Shown here piece after piece: positions 1 to 16,369 of a stretch of 20,000 bases of DNA. The notes under the pieces were generated by a model. It was given only the letters and a program-made list of their open reading frames with translations. It did not search any database and had not been told where the DNA came from. The stretch is from the IMG/VR virus record IMGVR_UViG_3300042545_001275, positions 52,099-72,098 of that record, one strand, 5' to 3'. Made by a program: the position numbers and the translations under genes. Position 1 is the stretch's first letter; each line of letters opens with the position of its first letter. This DNA comes from an uncultured virus (IMG/VR IMGVR_UViG_3300042545_001275) (lineage: Duplodnaviria; Heunggongvirae; Uroviricota; Caudoviricetes).

Positions 1-542
1 TTTCTCAATTAGACGTTGAAAATAAAATAATATATTTTTCAAAATGGTTTAATATGAATATCAGATCATTACCATTTAATTTTGAAGTTAAGTCTTGTAT
101 ATATGAGGGATATGATCTTAAATTTATTGAAAAAATTAATGCCATAGATAAAGAAAATGTAAAAGCTAGAATTGGATGGAGGTCCGTTTCAGAATCTTGG
201 AATAAAGCTTCACAATTTATAGATGCGGTTAGTAGCAGAGGATTGATTTCAACAGTATTAGACTATACAGGGGTTGATAATAAAGGTGGAGAAAGAGTAT
301 CCGATGAAATTTATAATTTAAGAAGAGAATCTTGTTTCGGGAGTTCTGAAAAAAATATTAAACCTTGTCATTTTTTGTCAAAAGATTCTGATGATATGCA
401 TTTTTGCAAAGCGTGTGGATGTGGGTCAAATAAACTTGCTGTATTAAATCCAAGACAAGAAGATGGATATTCTAAATTACATTATCCAAATTTAGAATGT
501 CCTTTGGCAAAACCAGGATTTTCTAATCATACTACACAGTAA
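1..542 (+). CDS. Cys-rich (putative metal-binding) domain protein, 5'-truncated by the window edge; paralog of 2076..3179
   Basis: The frame is open upstream of the ATG at 54 to the window edge (SQLDVENKIIYFSKWFNMNIRSL) and aligns with PQLDVENRSIYKSKYFNMQIRGL in the 367-aa ORF. The C-terminal RRESCFG..PC..FCKxCGCG..SKLHYPNLECP domain is nearly identical to the paralog. Confidence 0.85.
   Translation, partial: SQLDVENKIIYFSKWFNMNIRSLPFNFEVKSCIYEGYDLKFIEKINAIDKENVKARIGWRSVSESWNKASQFIDAVSSRGLISTVLDYTGVDNKGGERVSDEIYNLRRESCFGSSEKNIKPCHFLSKDSDDMHFCKACGCGSNKLAVLNPRQEDGYSKLHYPNLECPLAKPGFSNHTTQ
190..527 (+). repeat. Dispersed direct repeat, copy 1 (338 bp)
   Basis: Ungapped match to 2830..3167 at offset 2640. 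I count about 21 mismatches by hand (~94% identity); 414..527 is identical. Confidence 0.95.
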
Positions 543-583: not shown

Positions 584-1354
584 ATGGCGAAGTGTAACGG
601 ATTAAAAATAACAGCAAGATATTCCAATTCGGAAGGTCCGTGTCCTGGTGATCATAAATGTGATAATGCAGCGTGGAATCTTTATTTAGGGAAAATTTTC
701 ATAGGAGAAATAAATTTAAATAATGCAAATGATGGCGGAAATAGAGTTAGTGAATTATATGCAACTGGTGATGACATAAACGATTATATTTCCGAATTTG
801 GATGTAATTTAAAATTTGAAGCTAAGTGCGTTAATGAATATTGCCATTCCAATATCACTTGGTATCAAGTAGAAACTGATGATGGTGAAATATTATTAGA
901 TAGTTGTGTTTTAGATTCTTTTGAATTGGATTGTTGCGGTGGAGGACCACCCCCACCACCAGTATCTACAACCACCAGAAGACCTACAACAACCACCACC
1001 AGAAGACCAACTACAACAACCAGCACAACAACTGCAACTACTACTAGAAGACCCACAACTACTACTAGAAGACCCACAACTACTACTACTAGAACTACTG
1101 ATAGGTGCGATCCATCAACACAACGACCTCCAATAATTAATGATCCAACAGACGCAGAATTAACTACTATACCTTCTACAAATTCACCATGGGACATAAT
1201 ATTGATTGATCCTAGTTTACCTTTAAATTCTGATACTATTTTAACAACTACTACTAGCAGCACTACAACAAGCACCACCACACCAAGACCTATTTTAATA
1301 CCATCCACCACAATTCAACCTTGTGAAAAAGATTGTAATAAACTAGGATATTAA
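584..1354 (+). CDS. Mucin-like Thr/Pro-rich protein with Cys-rich N-terminal domain and C-terminal CxxxCNKLGY cassette (putative virion surface protein)
   Basis: 256 aa with TTTRRPTTT repeats, a conserved C-terminal cassette shared with 1365..2057 and 3753..5873, no signal peptide and a late-promoter motif upstream. Confidence 0.8.
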   Translation: MAKCNGLKITARYSNSEGPCPGDHKCDNAAWNLYLGKIFIGEINLNNANDGGNRVSELYATGDDINDYISEFGCNLKFEAKCVNEYCHSNITWYQVETDDGEILLDSCVLDSFELDCCGGGPPPPPVSTTTRRPTTTTTRRPTTTTSTTTATTTRRPTTTTRRPTTTTTRTTDRCDPSTQRPPIINDPTDAELTTIPSTNSPWDIILIDPSLPLNSDTILTTTTSSTTTSTTTPRPILIPSTTIQPCEKDCNKLGY

Positions 1355-1360
1355 TAAATA
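1354..1360 (+). promoter_or_regulatory. T4-like late promoter motif (ATAAATA) overlapping the upstream stop codon
   Basis: GGATAT-TAA-TAAATA-ttat-ATG. Confidence 0.6.
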
Positions 1361-1364
1361 TTAT

Positions 1365-2057
1365 ATGGCTCAGGCTCAACAATCATTAATGTATAGATGG
1401 GGAGGAACATTTCCACCCGAAGCTGGTCCAAGAACAAGTTCATTAACAGTATCTGGTATTGGTGATATAGTCTTTACTGTGCAAAGGGCAGGGGCTTTTT
1501 TTGGAACTGGAAGCTACACTTTTATAGTTGAATGGAATGGAATAGTTAGGCAGTACACAGATGTCTTTGATGGCACACTTCCATACGATATGGTAATATT
1601 TAAGTCGAGCGAAGAACCATCAGTTGTAAATATAACGTTGATTGTAAATCAATCAAATTATGGAGGTTTTATCGACGCTTTACTGTCCTATCCTGAACCT
1701 GATCCTACAACTACTCCTACAACAACTCCTACAACCACAACTACTCCCACAACAACTTCAACTTCTACAACTACCCCCACAACAACTCCCACAACAACTC
1801 CAAAACCTCCAGTACCAACAACACTTCCACACCCTCCAATAGATCCCAACGATCCAATCAAATTGGATTCGATACCTTCTGAAAATTCAGATAGAGATAT
1901 AACTCTAATTGATTCGATAAATCCATTAACATCAGATGTTGTTTTGACAACAACTACCACTACAACAACTACCACTACAACAACCACAACTTCAAATCCA
2001 ACATCAACCACCATTTCTCAAATATGTAAATCGGATTGTGATAAGTTGGGATATTAA
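1365..2057 (+). CDS. Mucin-like Thr/Pro-rich protein with beta-rich N-terminal domain and C-terminal CxxxCDKLGY cassette
   Basis: 230 aa with PTTT repeats, a 15-Thr run and the shared C-terminal cassette. Confidence 0.8.
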   Translation: MAQAQQSLMYRWGGTFPPEAGPRTSSLTVSGIGDIVFTVQRAGAFFGTGSYTFIVEWNGIVRQYTDVFDGTLPYDMVIFKSSEEPSVVNITLIVNQSNYGGFIDALLSYPEPDPTTTPTTTPTTTTTPTTTSTSTTTPTTTPTTTPKPPVPTTLPHPPIDPNDPIKLDSIPSENSDRDITLIDSINPLTSDVVLTTTTTTTTTTTTTTTSNPTSTTISQICKSDCDKLGY

Positions 2058-2075
2058 TATCAACAAATAAAATAT

Positions 2076-3179
2076 ATGAATGATACAAACATTATAACAA
2101 CAGACAATGAAAACATCGATTGTATTAATCTTTTAAAGAATGCATCTGGTAAAACATATTGCAAATTTTTATCAAATAAAATTGGAAAAGAATTTCAAAC
2201 ATGTTCTGAATTATGTAAAATGCATTGTTTTGAAACTGGACCATATAACAATAAATCAATTTCAAAAGAACAAGAAAAAGATTTTATTGTAAAATCAATC
2301 AAAGAATATGATATATCTTCATTAAAATCTGTTGAAAAAATATTAGATGATTATGATTCATTTTTTGATATATCAGTTCCTATTTTTTATATTGATATAT
2401 TACAAAATTTAAAATTTTTAAATAAATTTAACGGATTTAAAAAATTCACATTAACTGGAGATTGTATTATAACTTCCAAACAATCTGATTTAAAAAATTT
2501 AGATATTGTTCTTTGGTTTGATTCTATGCAAAATTTCATCAATCAGAATGTAAAATCGGAATTACCAGAGGTTATAAATAATATAAAAACAAATTATTAT
2601 ATATATACAGGAAATATTGAAAATGTATCAGATGTTATATATCCACAATTAGATGTTGAAAATAGAAGTATATACAAATCTAAGTACTTCAATATGCAAA
2701 TTAGAGGATTGCAAGTAGGTCTTCAAATAAAAGAAAATTTAAATGAAGAAAATAATATTATTAAAATTGATAATACAGAAGATATCAACAAAGAAAAAAT
2801 AAAACCAAAACTTGGTTGGAATTTGGTTGCAGAATCTTGGAGTAAAGCTTCACAATTTATAGATGCTGCTAGTAGTAGAGGCTTGATTTCAACAGTATTA
2901 GACTATACAGGAGTTGATAATAAAGGTGGAGAAAGAGTATCCGATGAAATTTATAATTTAAGAAGAGAATCTTGTTTTGGAAATATTGAAAAGAACATAG
3001 AACCTTGTCAATTTTTGTCAAAAGATCCTGATGATATGTACTTTTGCAAAGGATGTGGATGTGGGTCAAATAAACTTGCTGTATTAAATCCAAGACAAGA
3101 AGATGGATATTCTAAATTACATTATCCAAATTTAGAATGTCCTTTGGCAAAACCAGGATTTTCTAATTATATAGAATGA
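2076..3179 (+). CDS. Multi-domain protein: N-terminal Cys cluster, possible degenerate nucleotidyltransferase-like middle, C-terminal Cys-rich (CxxCGC...CP) domain
   Basis: 367 aa with C..C..CxxxCxxxC at the N-terminus and FTLTGDCI...NLDIVLW in the middle. The C-terminal domain is duplicated in 1..542. Confidence 0.75.
   Translation: MNDTNIITTDNENIDCINLLKNASGKTYCKFLSNKIGKEFQTCSELCKMHCFETGPYNNKSISKEQEKDFIVKSIKEYDISSLKSVEKILDDYDSFFDISVPIFYIDILQNLKFLNKFNGFKKFTLTGDCIITSKQSDLKNLDIVLWFDSMQNFINQNVKSELPEVINNIKTNYYIYTGNIENVSDVIYPQLDVENRSIYKSKYFNMQIRGLQVGLQIKENLNEENNIIKIDNTEDINKEKIKPKLGWNLVAESWSKASQFIDAASSRGLISTVLDYTGVDNKGGERVSDEIYNLRRESCFGNIEKNIEPCQFLSKDPDDMYFCKGCGCGSNKLAVLNPRQEDGYSKLHYPNLECPLAKPGFSNYIE
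2830..3167 (+). repeat. Dispersed direct repeat, copy 2 (338 bp)
   Basis: Matches 190..527 at about 94% identity, ungapped. Confidence 0.95.
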
Positions 3180-3208
3180 TTGTTAATCCACTACATTTAA
3201 ATTTGTCA

Positions 3209-3215
3209 ATAAATA
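3209..3215 (+). promoter_or_regulatory. T4-like late promoter motif (ATAAATA)
   Basis: Ends 10 nt before ATG 3226. Confidence 0.6.
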
Positions 3216-3225
3216 ATAATTAAGC

Positions 3226-3756
3226 ATGGTTACATTAACTGTAAATGGTTCTCCATATTCTGCCGCTATAAGTGCGGTCAATGATGAAGATTGGTATAAT
3301 TTTACACCAAGTTCCACCAGTCTTTATACAATGAGGACATATGGAAATACAGATATGTTGATGTATCTGTATTCCAGCGATCAAACAACCCTATTAGCTT
3401 CTGATGATGATAGTGGCGGTAATGGTCAATCGTTAATAACATATAATTTAAATGCTAGTCAAATCTATTATTTAAAATTAAGAGGATATGGTTCAAGTAC
3501 TGGAAATTATGAAGTTGCTGTATTTTTACAAAATCCAAGTTTTACATCTTGTTATGGTACTACAATACTAAACGCTTGTAACTGTAATTCTGGTTCTATA
3601 AGCAGATTTTATACTGGATCATTAGGAATTAATACTGTAATATACACTGATAATAGTTTATCAAACTTTTCAGCAGATGGATTATATCGAGTAAATTCAT
3701 CAACAGTTTATGTTTTAAGTAGTGGAAATGGAACTATCAATAATATAAGATCATGA
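3226..3756 (+). CDS. PPC-like (pre-peptidase C-terminal / collagen-binding-type beta-sandwich) domain plus one 71-aa-type repeat; probably the N-terminal part of a split gene with 3753..5873
   Basis: DEDWYNF...YT.RT.G.TD...YLY.....LLASDDDSGG....I.Y.L.A...YYLK.RGY....G.Y is a typical PPC pattern. The last ~70 aa (YG.T..NAC...FYTGSL..NT.IYTD..L...ADG.YR) match the repeats of the next ORF. Confidence 0.75.
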   Translation: MVTLTVNGSPYSAAISAVNDEDWYNFTPSSTSLYTMRTYGNTDMLMYLYSSDQTTLLASDDDSGGNGQSLITYNLNASQIYYLKLRGYGSSTGNYEVAVFLQNPSFTSCYGTTILNACNCNSGSISRFYTGSLGINTVIYTDNSLSNFSADGLYRVNSSTVYVLSSGNGTINNIRS

Positions 3757-5873
3757 CCAGCGACATTTACTTATATTATGGAGCAACTTCTGGTTCTGCT
3801 TGTACTAGTAACACTGGTTCAACTGTATATTATGAAGGATATATTGATATAGGAACTGCATTATATAGTGATGTTGATTTAATTACCCCTGCATCTGATG
3901 GATATTATAATTATTATGGAACGATATATTATGTAGTTAGTGGAGTTGTTGATTCATCTTCAACTTGTCCAGATTATAGTGTTGTATATTTTGGATCTAC
4001 AGTAGGAACTTCGTGTACTAGTAATACTGAATCAACTGTATATTATGAAGGATATATTGATATAGGAACTGCATTATATAGTGATGTTGATTTAATCACC
4101 CCTGCATCTGATGGATATTATAATTATGATGGAACGATATATTATGTAGTTAGTGGAGTTGTTGATTCATCTTCAACTTGTCCAGATTATAGTGTTGTAT
4201 ATTTCGGATCTACTGTAGGAACTGCTTGTGCTGATAATACTGAAACAACGGTATTCTATACTGGTTCTTTTACTACAGGAAATACATTATATACTGATGC
4301 TGATTTAACTATAACTGTTCCTAATGGATATTATAATTATTATGGAACGATATATTATGTAGTTAGTGGAGTTGTTGATTCATCTTCAACTTGTCCAAAT
4401 TCTACTTATTTATATTTTGGATCTACTGTAGGAACTTCGTGTACTAGTAATACTGGATCGACTGTATATCATACAGGATCTTTCGAAATAGGAACTACAT
4501 TATACACCGATTTTGATTTAACTATAACTGTTCCTGATGGATATTATAAAAGTGGAAACATAGTATATCAAACAATAGATGGAGTTATTCAATCTTCATC
4601 ATCTTGTCCAACTTCATTTTTTTTGTATTTTGGATCTACTGTAGGAACTGCGTGTACTAGTAATACTGGATCGACTGTATATCATACAGGATTTTTCGAA
4701 ATAGGAACTACATTATATACTGATGCTGATTTAACTACAACAGTATCTGATGGATATTATAAATATGAAAACACAGTATATCAAACAATAGGTGGAGTTA
4801 TTCAATCTTCTTTAAATTGTCCATTATCCTCCACTCTATCATATACTTTAGATAATTCTTGTTTTACTGGAACAACATCTGTATTATATTATATCGGTTC
4901 TCTTATAGAAGGAACTTTAGTATATAGCGATTTTAATAGAACCATACCAGCAGATGATGGTTATTATAGAGAGAGTGTAAGTGTTGTTTATGTAGTGTTA
5001 AACGGCGTAATAACCAGCATTACAAAATGCAACTATCAAACAAGCACAACCTTTACAACACAACCGCCAACGCAGCTCTGTCCTGGTAGAGCTATAGTTA
5101 TACAAATTTGCAATAGCAATGCTGTAAAAGATGATAATTTTGATATTTATGTAAATGGATATTATCTAGGTGGGCTTGATTTAAATTCAGATGCTCAAGT
5201 GGGTTCTATATTTATAGGATCTGATATTCCAAATTTAACAATAGTAAATCAAGATTTTGCCTGTCCATTAAACCAAATGGTAGAATATAGATTTAATGAA
5301 AATATATTAAATCTAGGAAATAACAATAACCTGTATATGAAAAATACGCAGGATAATTTTAATGGCAATCTTGGAACAGTACAAATTAGAGCTTATGATA
5401 TTATTGGAACTCTTTTGTTAAATCCAACTGTTATAGCAGATTTAACATATAGTGGGGATGAGGGTTATGATTTTCTTTTTGAAAATGTTGATATTTTTTG
5501 CCCCACCACAACAACCACAACATCAGCTCCTACTACTACCACTACTAGCACCACAACACTTGCTCCTGTCACTACTACTACTACTACTACTACCACTTCA
5601 CCGCCAACCACTACATTACCGCCATGTCCTGTTCATACATCGCAACCCCCGCCATTTATCAATACTCCAAAAGGAATAGAATTAGAATCTATAATTTCTA
5701 CAAATTCTCCCAGAAATATAACATTAGTTGAATCTTCAGATCCTTTAACTTCTGATATTATTTTAACAACTACCACAACTACTACCACAACTACCACAAC
5801 CACGACTACAACTACAATATATCCAACAACAATATTAAATTGTAACCCATATTGCAATAAATTGGGCTATTAA
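3753..5873 (+). CDS. Large Tyr/Thr/Gly-rich repeat protein (six ~71-aa repeats, globular domain, mucin-like stalk, CxxxCNKLGY cassette); putative virion fibre/adhesin
   Basis: 706 aa with a 213-nt repeat period, Thr runs, the shared C-terminal cassette and an ATGA overlap with the upstream ORF. Confidence 0.8.
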   Translation: MTSDIYLYYGATSGSACTSNTGSTVYYEGYIDIGTALYSDVDLITPASDGYYNYYGTIYYVVSGVVDSSSTCPDYSVVYFGSTVGTSCTSNTESTVYYEGYIDIGTALYSDVDLITPASDGYYNYDGTIYYVVSGVVDSSSTCPDYSVVYFGSTVGTACADNTETTVFYTGSFTTGNTLYTDADLTITVPNGYYNYYGTIYYVVSGVVDSSSTCPNSTYLYFGSTVGTSCTSNTGSTVYHTGSFEIGTTLYTDFDLTITVPDGYYKSGNIVYQTIDGVIQSSSSCPTSFFLYFGSTVGTACTSNTGSTVYHTGFFEIGTTLYTDADLTTTVSDGYYKYENTVYQTIGGVIQSSLNCPLSSTLSYTLDNSCFTGTTSVLYYIGSLIEGTLVYSDFNRTIPADDGYYRESVSVVYVVLNGVITSITKCNYQTSTTFTTQPPTQLCPGRAIVIQICNSNAVKDDNFDIYVNGYYLGGLDLNSDAQVGSIFIGSDIPNLTIVNQDFACPLNQMVEYRFNENILNLGNNNNLYMKNTQDNFNGNLGTVQIRAYDIIGTLLLNPTVIADLTYSGDEGYDFLFENVDIFCPTTTTTTSAPTTTTTSTTTLAPVTTTTTTTTTSPPTTTLPPCPVHTSQPPPFINTPKGIELESIISTNSPRNITLVESSDPLTSDIILTTTTTTTTTTTTTTTTTIYPTTILNCNPYCNKLGY
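3774..5030 (+). repeat. Intragenic tandem repeat, six units of about 213 bp (71 aa)
   Basis: tcaactgtatattatgaaggatatattgatatagg occurs at 3819 and 4032. Units 1/2 and 4/5 are near-identical pairs; unit 6 is diverged. Confidence 0.9.
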
Positions 5874-5879
5874 TAAATA
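5873..5879 (+). promoter_or_regulatory. T4-like late promoter motif (ATAAATA) overlapping the upstream stop codon
   Basis: GGCTAT-TAA-TAAATA-tgtcaat-ATG. Confidence 0.6.
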
Positions 5880-5886
5880 TGTCAAT

Positions 5887-6816
5887 ATGAGAAAATTGAC
5901 CATTGGAATGGCGACTTATGATGATTATGATGGTGTTTATTTTACAATTCAATCAATTAGAATGTATCATAAAGAAGTTTTAAATGATATTGAATTTGTA
6001 ATAATCGATAATAATCCATCTGGAAATCATGCAAAACCAATCAGAGAATTGACTGATTGGATAAAAGAACCAGTTCAATACTTTCCATTTACTAAATTTA
6101 AATCAACCACTGTAAAAAATAAAGTATTTGAAATAGCTGACACACCATATGTGATGTGTATTGATAGTCATGTATTACTAGAACCAGGATGTTTAAAAAA
6201 ATTAATAGATTTTTATGATGCTGGTCTTGATAATGGCAATTTATTACAAGGTCCGCTTATATACGATGACTTATCAAACATCTCAACACACTTTGATTTA
6301 AAATGGAGTGGTCACATGTGGGGTACATGGGCTACCGATGATAAAGGAAAAGACATAGATTCGCCACCATTTGAAATTCCAGCACAAGGAATGGGTTTGT
6401 TTTCATGCAGAAAAAATTCTTGGTTGGGATTTAATAAAGAATTTCGTGGATTTGGCGGAGAAGAAGGATACATTCATGAAAAATACAGAAAAAACGGTAA
6501 ACAAACGTTATGTTTACCGTTTTTGAAATGGCTCCATAGATTTGGTAGACCATCAGGAGTTCCTTATGTTAATGATCTAAAAGATCGTTTTAGAAATTAC
6601 ATGATTGGATTTATTGAACTTGGTTTAGATACAACAGAACTTAAAAATCATTTTAGTCAAGCTTTATCTAAACAAGATATTGAAGCTATAGAGCAAGAAA
6701 GCATTCTTTTAAATAAAGAATTGGATAAAATTATAAATCCAACCAAAACTATAAAATGCATTGATGTTTACTGTCAAGACAAAACACCCAATTCAATTTC
6801 TGTGTTAACATCATGA
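5887..6816 (+). CDS. GT-A fold glycosyltransferase with polypeptide HexNAc-transferase-like (GT27/GT60-like) motifs
   Basis: LTIGMATYD and IEFVIIDN form a GT-A N-terminus; VMCIDSHVLL gives DxH; GMGLFSCRK...FRGFGGEEGYI...G....LP...HRFGR resembles the Gal/GalNAc-T motif. Confidence 0.85.
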   Translation: MRKLTIGMATYDDYDGVYFTIQSIRMYHKEVLNDIEFVIIDNNPSGNHAKPIRELTDWIKEPVQYFPFTKFKSTTVKNKVFEIADTPYVMCIDSHVLLEPGCLKKLIDFYDAGLDNGNLLQGPLIYDDLSNISTHFDLKWSGHMWGTWATDDKGKDIDSPPFEIPAQGMGLFSCRKNSWLGFNKEFRGFGGEEGYIHEKYRKNGKQTLCLPFLKWLHRFGRPSGVPYVNDLKDRFRNYMIGFIELGLDTTELKNHFSQALSKQDIEAIEQESILLNKELDKIINPTKTIKCIDVYCQDKTPNSISVLTS

Positions 6817-14400: not shown

Positions 14401-15717
14401 TTAATTTGCAAATTTTTCAAGTAATGAAAGGTCTTCTTCGTTGATCATTTCTTCTTCTTCATCAGATTGAACGATACTCAATGTAGAATAATCAATTTTC
14501 ATGGGTTGAACCATTCCTCTCGGACCGTATCTATTTTTCATCATGCCCAATCTAATCAATCCCAATTCTTGATCTTCTTCATTTTGGAAAATAGATACAA
14601 TAACATCAGCGGTGGCTGCTAATCCTACAGATTCTGAAATTGTAGCCAAATCTGGATTGTCAGTATTGAAACCTGACTTGTTAAGCTGTGTAGCACTAAT
14701 AATAGGACATTTAAATATATAACTCATAGCACGAACCTGCTCACATATGTATTTCACACGTTCATAAGAATTAGAACCTATAGTGGAATGAAGCAAGTTA
14801 ACATAATCTATAACAATAGCATCTACTTTCTCGCCAGAATCTTGGAATTTTTTGACAAATGCTGTGAGTTGTTTCGGAGTAACTGTACTAGGAGGAAATT
14901 CTTTAATAAAAATTTTACTCTTTGGAAATTTCTCTTTCTCAGATTTCAAAAAATGTTGTAAAGATTTACAAGAAGATTGAAATTCTTTAAGTGGAATTTT
15001 TGTTATATTTGAACATATTCTTTTTGCGTATAACATTTCACTCATTTCAAGTGAAATGACAAGAACCGTTTTATTTTGTTTAGCAATGTTTGCTGCTATA
15101 TTACCAAGAAATATACTCTTGCCAATGTTTGTCTGTCCAGCGAAAATATATAATGATTTTCCATCTTCTCTAAAGCCTCCACCCAATGCATTATCTAACC
15201 ACTCCCACTTCGATGGAATTGTTTTTTCAACATTTGTAATATCGTCAATGATACGATCAGAATCTGAAAATATTTCTAATCCATTGTCAGTTACTAATTT
15301 AATATTGCATGATTTTTCAAACTGCTCAAGTATATTTGATGTGTCTACAACACCATCAGATACATCATTTGCAACTTTTAATAAAGTATGATAAACGCTC
15401 TTCTCTTTTAAGAAAATTTCAGTGTTTTCATATAATTCATCAATATCTAAATTTTTATCTAGATCTTTAAAAGATGATACGAGTTGTTTAAATCCTTCTT
15501 TTAAAGAATCTTCAACTAAGTATGACTTAATTTCTGTCATACTTGGCAATTTTTGCCTTTTATCGTAAAAATTTCTAACTATTTCAAAATATTTCGAAAT
15601 TCTTTTGTCTTCAAAATATTCGGGATTTATATAATCTGCAATTGCATTTAAGTAAGTTGCATCAATTAGGCATTGTCTTGCTAATATTTTTTCAAAATGT
15701 TCTAAATCAAGATTCAT
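14401..15717 (-). CDS. 41: Replicative DnaB-family helicase, T4 gp41-like
   Basis: Walker A AGQTNIGKS, SLEM, Walker B VIDY, SATQLN and KNRYG. Confidence 0.95.
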   Translation of the reverse strand: MNLDLEHFEKILARQCLIDATYLNAIADYINPEYFEDKRISKYFEIVRNFYDKRQKLPSMTEIKSYLVEDSLKEGFKQLVSSFKDLDKNLDIDELYENTEIFLKEKSVYHTLLKVANDVSDGVVDTSNILEQFEKSCNIKLVTDNGLEIFSDSDRIIDDITNVEKTIPSKWEWLDNALGGGFREDGKSLYIFAGQTNIGKSIFLGNIAANIAKQNKTVLVISLEMSEMLYAKRICSNITKIPLKEFQSSCKSLQHFLKSEKEKFPKSKIFIKEFPPSTVTPKQLTAFVKKFQDSGEKVDAIVIDYVNLLHSTIGSNSYERVKYICEQVRAMSYIFKCPIISATQLNKSGFNTDNPDLATISESVGLAATADVIVSIFQNEEDQELGLIRLGMMKNRYGPRGMVQPMKIDYSTLSIVQSDEEEEMINEEDLSLLEKFAN

Positions 15718-16369
15718 ATTTGTTCAAAAACCACTTTTCGGCTGCTTTCCACTCATCTGTAAACTCTTTTAATCCTGGAGATTCATGATTTATATAAATA
15801 TCTCCAACACCAACCTTATGACCCATATTATGGCAATTTAAAGAAAAGTCAAGATCATAAAAATGAGCCTTCGCTGGATTTGCAGTATCAAATCTTGCAG
15901 TTTCAATCACTTTACGATTCATTGCCATAAAAACACCATCCAACATAACCACTCTATGTGGGTATGGTCCAAAACTTGTCATATTTTTAATCGTTTCGTT
16001 TCCATGTGCTACCGCACCATGAAGATTCCCTCCTCCAAAACCACCACCCATGATGTGCCATAATGCTGGACTTTTTAAGTTTATTTGAGATGTTCCAGCC
16101 ACTCCAATCAAATCATATTTTTCAAATAATTTTATTAGTTTTGGAGTAGGGTCATATTCTAACCAAATATCATCATGAGCTAATACCAAAGCGTCCCAAT
16201 CTTCTTCTAATGCCTTATCTATAGCTTTATTATACGCCTTCGGTAATCCTTCACTATTGTTTAAATCAAAAGCTATATTTATATCTAAATTTATTTCTTT
16301 TATGCTTTTTAATAAAGCGGTATCTTTAGGGTCGGTTTTTCTAGTTGCTGAAAAGAACGCAATTCTCAT
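15707..16369 (-). CDS. GT-A glycosyltransferase-like protein (Glyco_tranf_2_5-like)
   Basis: GL..AYN.AI, LVLAHDDI, LIGVAG, LDGVFMA, HFYDLDFSL and HESPG. Confidence 0.8.
   Translation of the reverse strand: MRIAFFSATRKTDPKDTALLKSIKEINLDINIAFDLNNSEGLPKAYNKAIDKALEEDWDALVLAHDDIWLEYDPTPKLIKLFEKYDLIGVAGTSQINLKSPALWHIMGGGFGGGNLHGAVAHGNETIKNMTSFGPYPHRVVMLDGVFMAMNRKVIETARFDTANPAKAHFYDLDFSLNCHNMGHKVGVGDIYINHESPGLKEFTDEWKAAEKWFLNKYES

Follow-up and report, generated by a model that had tools for sequence, protein, structure and literature searches.

The window analyzed here is a 20,000-nucleotide (nt) stretch (positions 52,099 to 72,098) of the IMG/VR record IMGVR_UViG_3300042545_001275, whose source is an uncultured lake phage of low GC content (~30%) related to T4. 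Its plus strand carries, between positions 3 and 6816, a run of co-oriented genes which ends with a glycosyltransferase (GT) gene, and three of the genes preceding it encode proteins with long threonine (Thr) tracts. Judging from sequence comparisons and structural models, the GT is probably a phage-encoded polypeptide O-glycosyltransferase acting on these neighboring mucin-like proteins, which may well be virion appendages, a reading in which we place moderate confidence. That the enzyme is encoded beside its presumptive poly-Thr substrates is well supported by comparative gene order. The genes concerned and the module shared by the Thr-rich proteins are as follows.

584–1354, plus strand: Thr-rich protein 1, 256 amino acids (aa), 51 Thr; Cys-rich N-terminal domain and two Thr tracts
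1365–2057, plus strand: Thr-rich protein 2, 230 aa, 55 Thr; N-terminal region of ~110 aa and two Thr tracts
3753–5873, plus strand: Thr-rich protein 3, 706 aa, 131 Thr; six tandem repeats of ~71 aa and two Thr tracts
5887–6816, plus strand: predicted soluble GT-A glycosyltransferase, 309 aa; PF00535; begins 13 nt beyond the stop codon at 5873
1040–1354, plus strand: shared C-terminal module, copy 1, from the alignment of the three modules
1743–2057, plus strand: shared C-terminal module, copy 2, from the same alignment
5559–5873, plus strand: shared C-terminal module, copy 3, from the same alignment; ends 13 nt before the GT

The glycosyltransferase and its association with poly-Thr genes

An analysis of open reading frames (ORFs) confirmed the three Thr-rich ORFs and the co-oriented GT 13 nt further on, as described in an earlier, sequence-only reading of this DNA. 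The co-occurrence check named in that reading also came out in its favor, homologs of the GT being tightly linked to Thr-rich genes in 34 of 35 close phage loci, in further phage subclades and in many bacterial loci. In IMG/VR, 127 stretches encode relatives of the GT, of which 80 loci were kept; context beyond the window was taken from such related virus records, with L and G labels denoting loci and genomes, respectively. In the 34 loci, all with a GT at least 67% identical to that of the window, a poly-Thr ORF lies directly upstream of the GT and ends in C-x(4-5)-C-[NK]-x-L-x-[YF], and the gap between the two genes is 10–13 nt in the 33 loci measured. In L030, the poly-Thr ORF is present in a frame without an ATG start and was hence missed by the ORF caller. 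The sole exception of the 35, L035 (6949–8004 and 8939–11608), has a radical-SAM/SPASM gene upstream of the GT and two Thr-rich ORFs directly downstream. Poly-Thr ORFs with 10 Thr in 20 residues are rare, amounting to 53 of the 2209 six-frame ORFs of the phage loci, and the poly-Thr signal is far beyond chance. In the complete relative G005 (197,682 nt), one of 496 six-frame ORFs of at least 60 aa is poly-Thr; in contig G002 (143,932 nt), from a near-identical strain with a GT 99% identical, it is one of 297. In both cases this ORF is the neighbor of the GT.

The distribution of the linkage was followed on a tree of 140 GT sequences, inferred quickly by maximum likelihood; it omits exact duplicates and anything under 240 aa, and 11 of its rows lack the flank needed for scoring. 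The clade containing the GT of the window comprises 26 rows (Shimodaira-Hasegawa-like approximate likelihood ratio test, SH-aLRT, 98), and all 25 scorable rows have a poly-Thr neighbor. In a second, more distant phage clade, such a neighbor occurs in seven rows spread over four subclades, where the partner proteins have architectures unrelated to those of the window. In two of these upstream neighbors (L065:6142–7986 and L069:6335–7993), an FGE-sulfatase-type domain is joined to Thr tracts in which up to 17 of 20 residues are Thr; the L065 protein additionally has a glycine-rich domain.

Bacterial relatives extend the pattern. GTDB genomes contain 425 relatives of the GT, of which 79 loci from many phyla were kept (46–73% identity). 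Among the cultured strains with a homologous cassette are Bradyrhizobium diazoefficiens SZCCT0138, Oricola indica JL-62, Paenochrobactrum glaciei JCM 15115 and Desulforhopalus singaporensis DSM 12130. Here, the GT domain usually lies within multidomain proteins of 450–1300 aa; among 20 such proteins scanned, four are fused to PqqD and nine to GT25, and further fused domains include a methyltransferase, a sulfotransferase and the HprK-related kinase A (TIGR04352). PqqD is a peptide-binding domain of pathways for ribosomally made peptides that undergo post-translational modification (RiPPs). In 31 of the 79 loci, the GT has, no more than 1.2 kb away, a co-oriented ORF in which at least 10 of 20 residues are Thr, against a background of 52 Thr-rich ORFs among 2758. 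Furthermore, 34 of the 79 loci contain one to five small precursor ORFs with the leader RRxxLK...W-x-K/R-P-V-V...P-A-H-A, which is followed by a Thr-rich tail in 29 of these 34. The leader resembles a twin-arginine signal, and by sequence the precursors look exported. Precursor arrays were seen in L084–L160, for example at L106:7439–8231, L092:4158–4896 and L154:3305–4143, beside fusions of the HprK-related kinase, PqqD and GT domains. Since three structurally unrelated kinds of poly-Thr partner accompany the GT family, the Thr tract as acceptor is the simplest common factor.

The phage and bacterial cassettes are alike in having a related GT domain, 46–58% identical between the bacterial proteins and the enzyme of the window, and adjoining poly-Thr partners. 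They differ in that the proteins of the window match neither PqqD nor the kinase and its Thr-rich proteins lack the W.KPVV...PAHA leader; where the bacterial substrates have the N-terminal leader (RRxxLK...W.KPVV..V.VPAHA), the phage version has a C-terminal Cys-x4-Cys-NKLGY module. Literature searches at the level of listings and abstracts turned up no account of the bacterial kinase/PqqD/GT poly-Thr system. One locus among the GTDB relatives, L082, is a 3.6-kb contig from a metagenome-assembled genome (MAG) labeled Flavobacterium and encodes a GT 73% identical to that of the window. This GT nests inside the phage clade of the tree; the contig is probably of phage origin and came into a bacterial MAG by binning.

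The GT matches PF00535 (Glycos_transf_2) over residues 6–135 with 42.4 bits (cut-off 23.3; E 9.2e-11), as do 38 of 38 members of its homolog alignment. The strings CIDSH, AQGMGLFS, FRGFGGEE, LP, HRFGR and PY, picked out in the sequence-only reading, are all present and most are invariant in the homologs; residues invariant across the 38 are D93, H95, F189, G190, E193, P211, H217, R218 and F219. By motif, the invariant D93-S-H95 and H217 may correspond to the DxH metal-binding motif and downstream His that mark GT27. FRGFGGEE is a candidate counterpart of the WGGEN-like motif of Gal/GalNAc-transferases (Pfam Glyco_transf_7C region), for which PF02709 was weakly matched in 6 of the 38 members (best E 0.056).

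An AlphaFold2 (AF2) model of the GT, built from the 38 homologs, is confident (predicted local distance difference test, pLDDT, 91.9), with disorder confined to residues 293–309. The first strand begins at residue 4, and past the catalytic domain there are helices only to residue 283, followed by the disordered tail; the model contains no membrane segment and Pfam detected no lectin domain. In the structural check named in the sequence-only reading, the outcome favored that reading, since the best matches were to GT27 rather than to polysaccharide or DNA glycosyltransferases. All 31 rows that a Foldseek search of the PDB listed (to rank 50) are GT27 GalNAc-transferases, headed by 2d7i_A (E 4.3e-14; query TM-score, TMq, 0.66), with TMq reaching 0.70 among the matches listed. 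The VIA structure search, which is independent of Foldseek and covered 48,161 chains, ranked mouse GalNAc-T1 (8v9q_A) first, with Z 23.2 and 265 residues aligned at a root-mean-square deviation of 3.4, and Toxoplasma GalNAc-T3 (8uhv_A) second (Z 22.6). The next family is RmlT (Z 19.6, 202 residues aligned), and further down come WrtF, K4CP (19.0), B4GALNT1, TarS (18.0) and TarP (17.0). Based on these models, the GT is GT27-like in its predicted fold and probably in its mode of action. Among viral models in BFVD, one clear homolog was found (E 3.6e-27); the remaining matches are generic GT-A proteins and include several proteins of uncultured phages named “Glycosyltransferase, GlcNAc” (E ~1e-9, TMq ~0.5). 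The GT family is large, with 3062 matches in a word-indexed search and 1767 cluster representatives at E ≤1e-3.

Thr-rich proteins and their genomic context

The Thr tracts on which the sequence-only reading had relied are present in all three proteins. The genes are not contiguous as implied there, two others (2076–3179, 367 aa, and 3226–3756, 176 aa, with a PPC domain) being inserted between the second and the third. All three proteins share a C-terminal module of ~105 aa, which consists of a Thr/Pro tract, a Pro-containing linker, a poly-Thr run (~15–18 Thr) and the terminus Cys-x4-Cys-[ND]-K-L-G-Y. In protein 1, a PTTTTRR-type tract (aa 122–169) and a linker precede a second Thr tract (221–234) and the C-terminus CEKDCNKLGY. 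Protein 2 has a PTTT tract (114–146), a linker, a poly-Thr tract (195–216) and the C-terminus CKSDCDKLGY; its N-terminal ~110 aa may form a β-sandwich, with its ESM Atlas model giving weak structural matches alone (TM ≤0.37). In protein 3, the repeats, spaced 213 nt at the DNA level, are followed by an unassigned domain (aa ~430–580), Thr tracts at 584–621 and 672–693 and the C-terminus CNPYCNKLGY. One copy of its 71-aa repeat also ends the PPC protein (E 1e-6), whose gene overlaps with its stop the start of protein 3 (ATGA). The N-terminal domains of proteins 1 and 2 showed no significant similarity to the unassigned domain of protein 3 (E 0.32 and 4.9), and a homolog search with residues 1–580 of the 706-aa protein gave two matches only.

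The Thr codons inside the tracts are mixed (ACT, ACA and ACC), which points to maintenance of the tracts through selection on the protein rather than on the DNA. As claimed earlier, the N-termini of the Thr-rich proteins carry no signal peptide, judged by eye for hydrophobic stretches. At L001:978–3422, the counterpart of window 3753–5873 encodes 814 aa compared to 706 aa, though the GTs of the two strains are 100% identical, and their Thr runs also differ by a few residues. Because near-identical strains differ in repeat number and tract length, the repeats and the Thr tracts evolve fast. A complex prediction of the GT (residues 1–290) with the shared C-terminal module scored 0.00; it was run without controls and constitutes evidence in neither direction.

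Locus L002 represents the same phage sequence as the window in their overlap, with a GT 100% identical and equal ORF lengths, and has a Gp10_C baseplate/fiber protein (PF21939, E 1.6e-20) upstream of the cassette. In G005 (locus L018), the order is Gp10_C, two Mtd_N genes, the poly-Thr protein and the GT, followed on the opposite strand by primase, clamp and gp32. By gene order, the cassette closes a baseplate/tail-fiber operon in these two related phages. Because the Thr-rich genes occupy this position, their products are most likely located on the virion, a placement for which synteny is the sole basis.

Proposed role, competing explanations and known systems

In the proposed mechanism, the soluble cytoplasmic GT would transfer the first sugar from a nucleotide sugar onto Thr, and possibly Ser, residues of the poly-Thr tracts. 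Each of the three proteins combines a different N-terminal globular “head” with a Thr/Pro “stalk” and the common C-terminal module, which could serve as a virion anchor or as a docking site for the enzyme. Glycosylation, presumably with Thr as the acceptor and in the cytoplasm before assembly, would turn the tracts into stiff, protease-resistant, mucin-like stalks. The products would then be displayed on the virion, and the other glycosyltransferases of the phage lineage may extend the glycan. The O-glycosylation interpretation first drawn from the sequence is partly supported, by gene linkage and by fold; the late promoters that were part of it found no support. A more far-reaching version, which we regard as possible yet rather doubtful, is a complete eukaryote-style mucin pathway with a GT27-like starter enzyme, glycans extended by an island of glycan genes, a virion glycocalyx and kinship to eukaryotic GT27/GT60. 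The three different heads, each joined to the same conserved stalk and C-terminal anchor module, would represent interchangeable glycosylated fibers. The island would build complex decorated chains with its GT2, GT17, GT7C-like and fucosyltransferase-like GT11 enzymes together with its sugar methyltransferases, aminotransferase and dehydratase. The prokaryotic and phage family would be the sister or the source of the initiating enzymes of eukaryotic GT27/GT60.

Several observations weigh against the GT being a glycosyltransferase of neighboring virion proteins. The coupling to poly-Thr genes is not universal, since in the distant phage clade no poly-Thr neighbor was found for 23 of the 30 scorable rows; most GTs of that clade adjoin a PD-(D/E)XK nuclease or other glycosyltransferases. 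Similarly, among 71 scorable bacterial rows, 37 are without a poly-Thr ORF at a distance of up to 1.2 kb. Many of the phage loci are strains of a few phages and do not count as independent samples, and both the threshold of 9–10 Thr in 20 residues and the ATG-only ORF caller are our own choices. In Pfam and PHROGs, the Thr-rich proteins matched no virion protein family. As for the enzyme, its structural alignments to GT27 show 13–18% identity, and a profile of the 38 homologs retrieved no GT27 chain from all PDB sequences at E ≤10. The sequences it did retrieve were TarP, K4CP (chondroitin synthase), TarS, DPMS and 3bcv, aligned over the N-terminal, nucleotide-binding half; phmmer with the single GT sequence gave no match among PDB sequences at E ≤1. 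The likeness to GT27 suggested by the sequence-only reading accordingly stands for the fold, where GT27 supplies the top matches, and fails for sequence membership, for which the profile result led to its rejection. Given the lack of a sequence match, of a lectin domain and of a membrane anchor, the GT is called GT27-like in fold and not a member. Finally, the fold alone cannot fix the acceptor, because GT-A enzymes acting on teichoic acid or polysaccharides score Z 17–19.6.

These scores bear directly on an alternative which we judge unlikely, namely that the acceptor is not a protein but, for instance, a host envelope polysaccharide, lipopolysaccharide, a teichoic-acid-like polymer or an oligosaccharide built by the other glycosyltransferases of the phage. 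The poly-Thr stretches would then be unglycosylated flexible linkers, and their adjacency to the GT would reflect a hot spot for accessory genes at the operon end. RmlT, K4CP, TarS and TarP are strong structural matches, enzymes of the teichoic-acid/polysaccharide type are the sole sequence-level matches in the PDB, a near-identical strain has about 13 glycan genes in an ~11-kb island at another site of its genome, and the distant phage clade mostly lacks the poly-Thr neighbor. However, two GT27 chains outrank all polysaccharide enzymes by 3.0–3.6 Z with at least 22 more residues aligned, and the GT lies apart from the glycan island, yet beside a poly-Thr gene in 34 of 35 loci. The recurrence of three unrelated kinds of poly-Thr partner, including PqqD fusions and leader-bearing precursors, and the absence of a membrane segment from the GT model also speak for a protein acceptor. 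It is likewise improbable, in our estimation, that the Thr-rich proteins are glycosylated by the GT but serve outside the virion, for example as decoys, as an adhesive matrix or by protecting the cell under infection. As soluble or host-surface-bound products, they would be released at lysis or act inside the cell, and the C-terminal module would be a docking tag for the enzyme. Such a role would fit the lack of virion family matches for the three proteins, the bacterial counterparts resembling exported peptides with twin-arginine-signal-like leaders, and some phage partners which lack a head and are nearly pure Thr/Ser/Pro (e.g., 149 aa in L014). It fits less well with the position of the genes at the end of a baseplate/tail-fiber operon in two related phages, with the adhesin-type domains in their neighbors (PPC here, Mtd_N and Gp10_C in relatives) and with the phage proteins having no signal peptide by eye.

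Modification of phage DNA by the GT is highly improbable. T4 glucosylates hydroxymethylcytosine, T4-like phages glycosylate their DNA, and the GT adjoins the replication module. No DNA glycosyltransferase is among the top structural matches, however, and the gene lies on the late-operon strand in close translational coupling to a poly-Thr gene; the poly-Thr linkage moreover recurs in bacteria, where a DNA rationale is lacking.

Among known systems, GT27 (mouse GalNAc-T1, 8v9q; human GalNAc-T10, 2d7i; Toxoplasma GalNAc-T3, 8ujg) is structurally the nearest over nearly the whole catalytic domain. By motif, the phage GT resembles GT27 in a putative metal-binding DxH in place of DxD together with a conserved downstream His, and it is associated with Thr/Pro-rich, mucin-like candidate acceptors. 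Unlike GT27, it is encoded by a bacteriophage, shares no more than the low identity given above and is predicted to be a soluble, presumably cytoplasmic protein of 309 aa without a ricin-type lectin domain, a membrane anchor or a stem. The GT60 GlcNAc-transferases, such as Dictyostelium Skp1 Gnt1, are soluble cytoplasmic relatives of GT27 which modify protein hydroxyls. No GT60 chain is among the matches listed in the PDB structure searches (Foldseek and VIA), and none of the 38 GT family members matched the Pfam GlcNAc family at E ≤1. SunS, the glycocin S-glycosyltransferase of GT2 (7msp, 7msn), is, among peptide-modifying GT-A enzymes, one that glycosylates a ribosomal peptide encoded beside it, as is proposed for the phage GT, but it is a far weaker structural match (Z 13.4). 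Its target is a Cys in a helical-hairpin bacteriocin rather than a poly-Thr tract.

As cited in PMC12619734, glycosylation of phage particle proteins is known experimentally from mycobacteriophages only, where the subunits of capsid and tail tube carry glycans C-terminally (Freeman et al., 2023). On that account, mycobacteriophages resemble the phage of the window in using phage-encoded glycosyltransferases on their own structural proteins, as is proposed for the latter. There, the phages are siphophages infecting actinobacteria and the acceptors are given as their major capsid and tail-tube subunits, genes for which are absent from the window, whereas the acceptors proposed here are dedicated poly-Thr mucin-like proteins of an aquatic T4-like phage, paired with a GT27-like enzyme. 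Literature searches at the level of listings and abstracts turned up no paper describing, for T4-like or aquatic phages, a system of the GT27-like or mucin type.

Should the proposed role be correct, T4-like phages abundant in fresh and marine waters would be producers of mucin-like glycoproteins, made by an enzyme whose shape recalls the mucin-initiating transferases of animals, with bearing on phage adhesion, resistance to proteases or grazers, and host recognition. The phage enzyme would be linked to a widespread, uncharacterized bacterial system whose apparent glycosylation substrates are poly-Thr peptides with a leader, and a prokaryotic ancestry of eukaryotic mucin-type O-glycosylation would become testable. 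A small, soluble, lectin-free polypeptide glycosyltransferase could, furthermore, be useful for bacterial glycoengineering.

Neighboring genes, upstream motifs and a glycan island

The remaining features of the cassette are listed below.

3–542, plus strand: 3′ part of a 370-aa gene, paralog of 2076–3179, with a full copy at L002:1544–2656; C-terminal Cys-rich domain
2076–3179, plus strand: 367-aa protein; its C-terminal ~125 aa are the Cys-rich, GT-associated domain
3226–3756, plus strand: PPC-domain protein, 176 aa; PF04151, E 6.3e-8
5872–5879, plus strand: motif AATAAATA, 7 nt before the GT start; like motifs at 1353–1360 and 3208–3215

The sequence-only reading had placed late motifs on the cassette genes, which the analysis did not bear out. 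The canonical T4 late motif TATAAATA lies upstream of none of them (8 matches compared to 5.3 expected), and AATAAATA is not over-represented, with 6 copies compared to 7.2 expected. Four of the five plus-strand copies of AATAAATA end 4–10 nt before plus-strand starts (1365, 3226, 5887 and 7880); two of the copies are not independent because they are part of the duplicated ...KLGY-stop module. By its placement, AATAAATA is a candidate for a late-promoter-like element or an initiation-region motif.

None of the cassette proteins was assigned to any PHROGs family, and searching 50,697 phage records by tblastn with the GT and with the 706-aa protein gave no match; there is no cultured relative. 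The 370-aa gene fragment at 3–542 and its paralog at 2076–3179 share a DNA repeat with 75% identity over 300 nt. The Cys-rich C-terminal domain of these proteins, ~125 aa long, has 38 invariant columns and the pattern ...SRG...G.RVS...SCFG...FC..CGC..N.LA.L...GYSKLHYP.LECPL..GFSN. Other proteins from metagenomes carry it in fusion with GT2 domains and, in one case, a GT90 domain, and on the strength of these fusions it looks like an undescribed glycosyltransferase-associated module. The core of the 367-aa protein (aa 97–229) bears a weak resemblance to the nucleotidyltransferase fold (VIA Z ≤5.5; model pLDDT 66.9). Foldseek found nothing for the protein at E ≤1e-3, and the ESM Atlas held neither a model nor a match. 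An enzymatic role was not adopted, as the consensus reads ...IDIV... in place of a DxD/E pair.

The glycan island was seen in G002, where it spans ~11 kb of the contig (30.9–42 kb; L173:11893–19487 and L174:492–3964) at a distance of ~28 kb from the cassette and comprises ~13 glycan genes. These include three GT2, one GT7C/GT2-like, two GT11 and one GT17 gene, as well as genes for two sugar-type methyltransferases, DUF5672 and DUF3431 proteins, a DegT aminotransferase and an epimerase/dehydratase, and the island is interrupted by a GIY-YIG/NUMOD3 homing endonuclease gene. Its enzymes could extend the glycan or serve another target.

The sequencing runs listed as containing the region are 20 DNA runs from 19 studies, 17 of them labeled lake water; no RNA run is listed, which is uninformative. 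The minus strand of the window encodes a primase (PHROG 47), gp32 (PF08804), a DnaB-type helicase and a RecA/UvsX-like protein with only ~32% identity to cyanophage UvsX. A second GT-like gene is located on this strand at 15707–16369 (220 aa; PF13712, Glyco_tranf_2_5, E 1.6e-10), flanked by the DnaB-type helicase and a 616-aa ORF of no assigned function.

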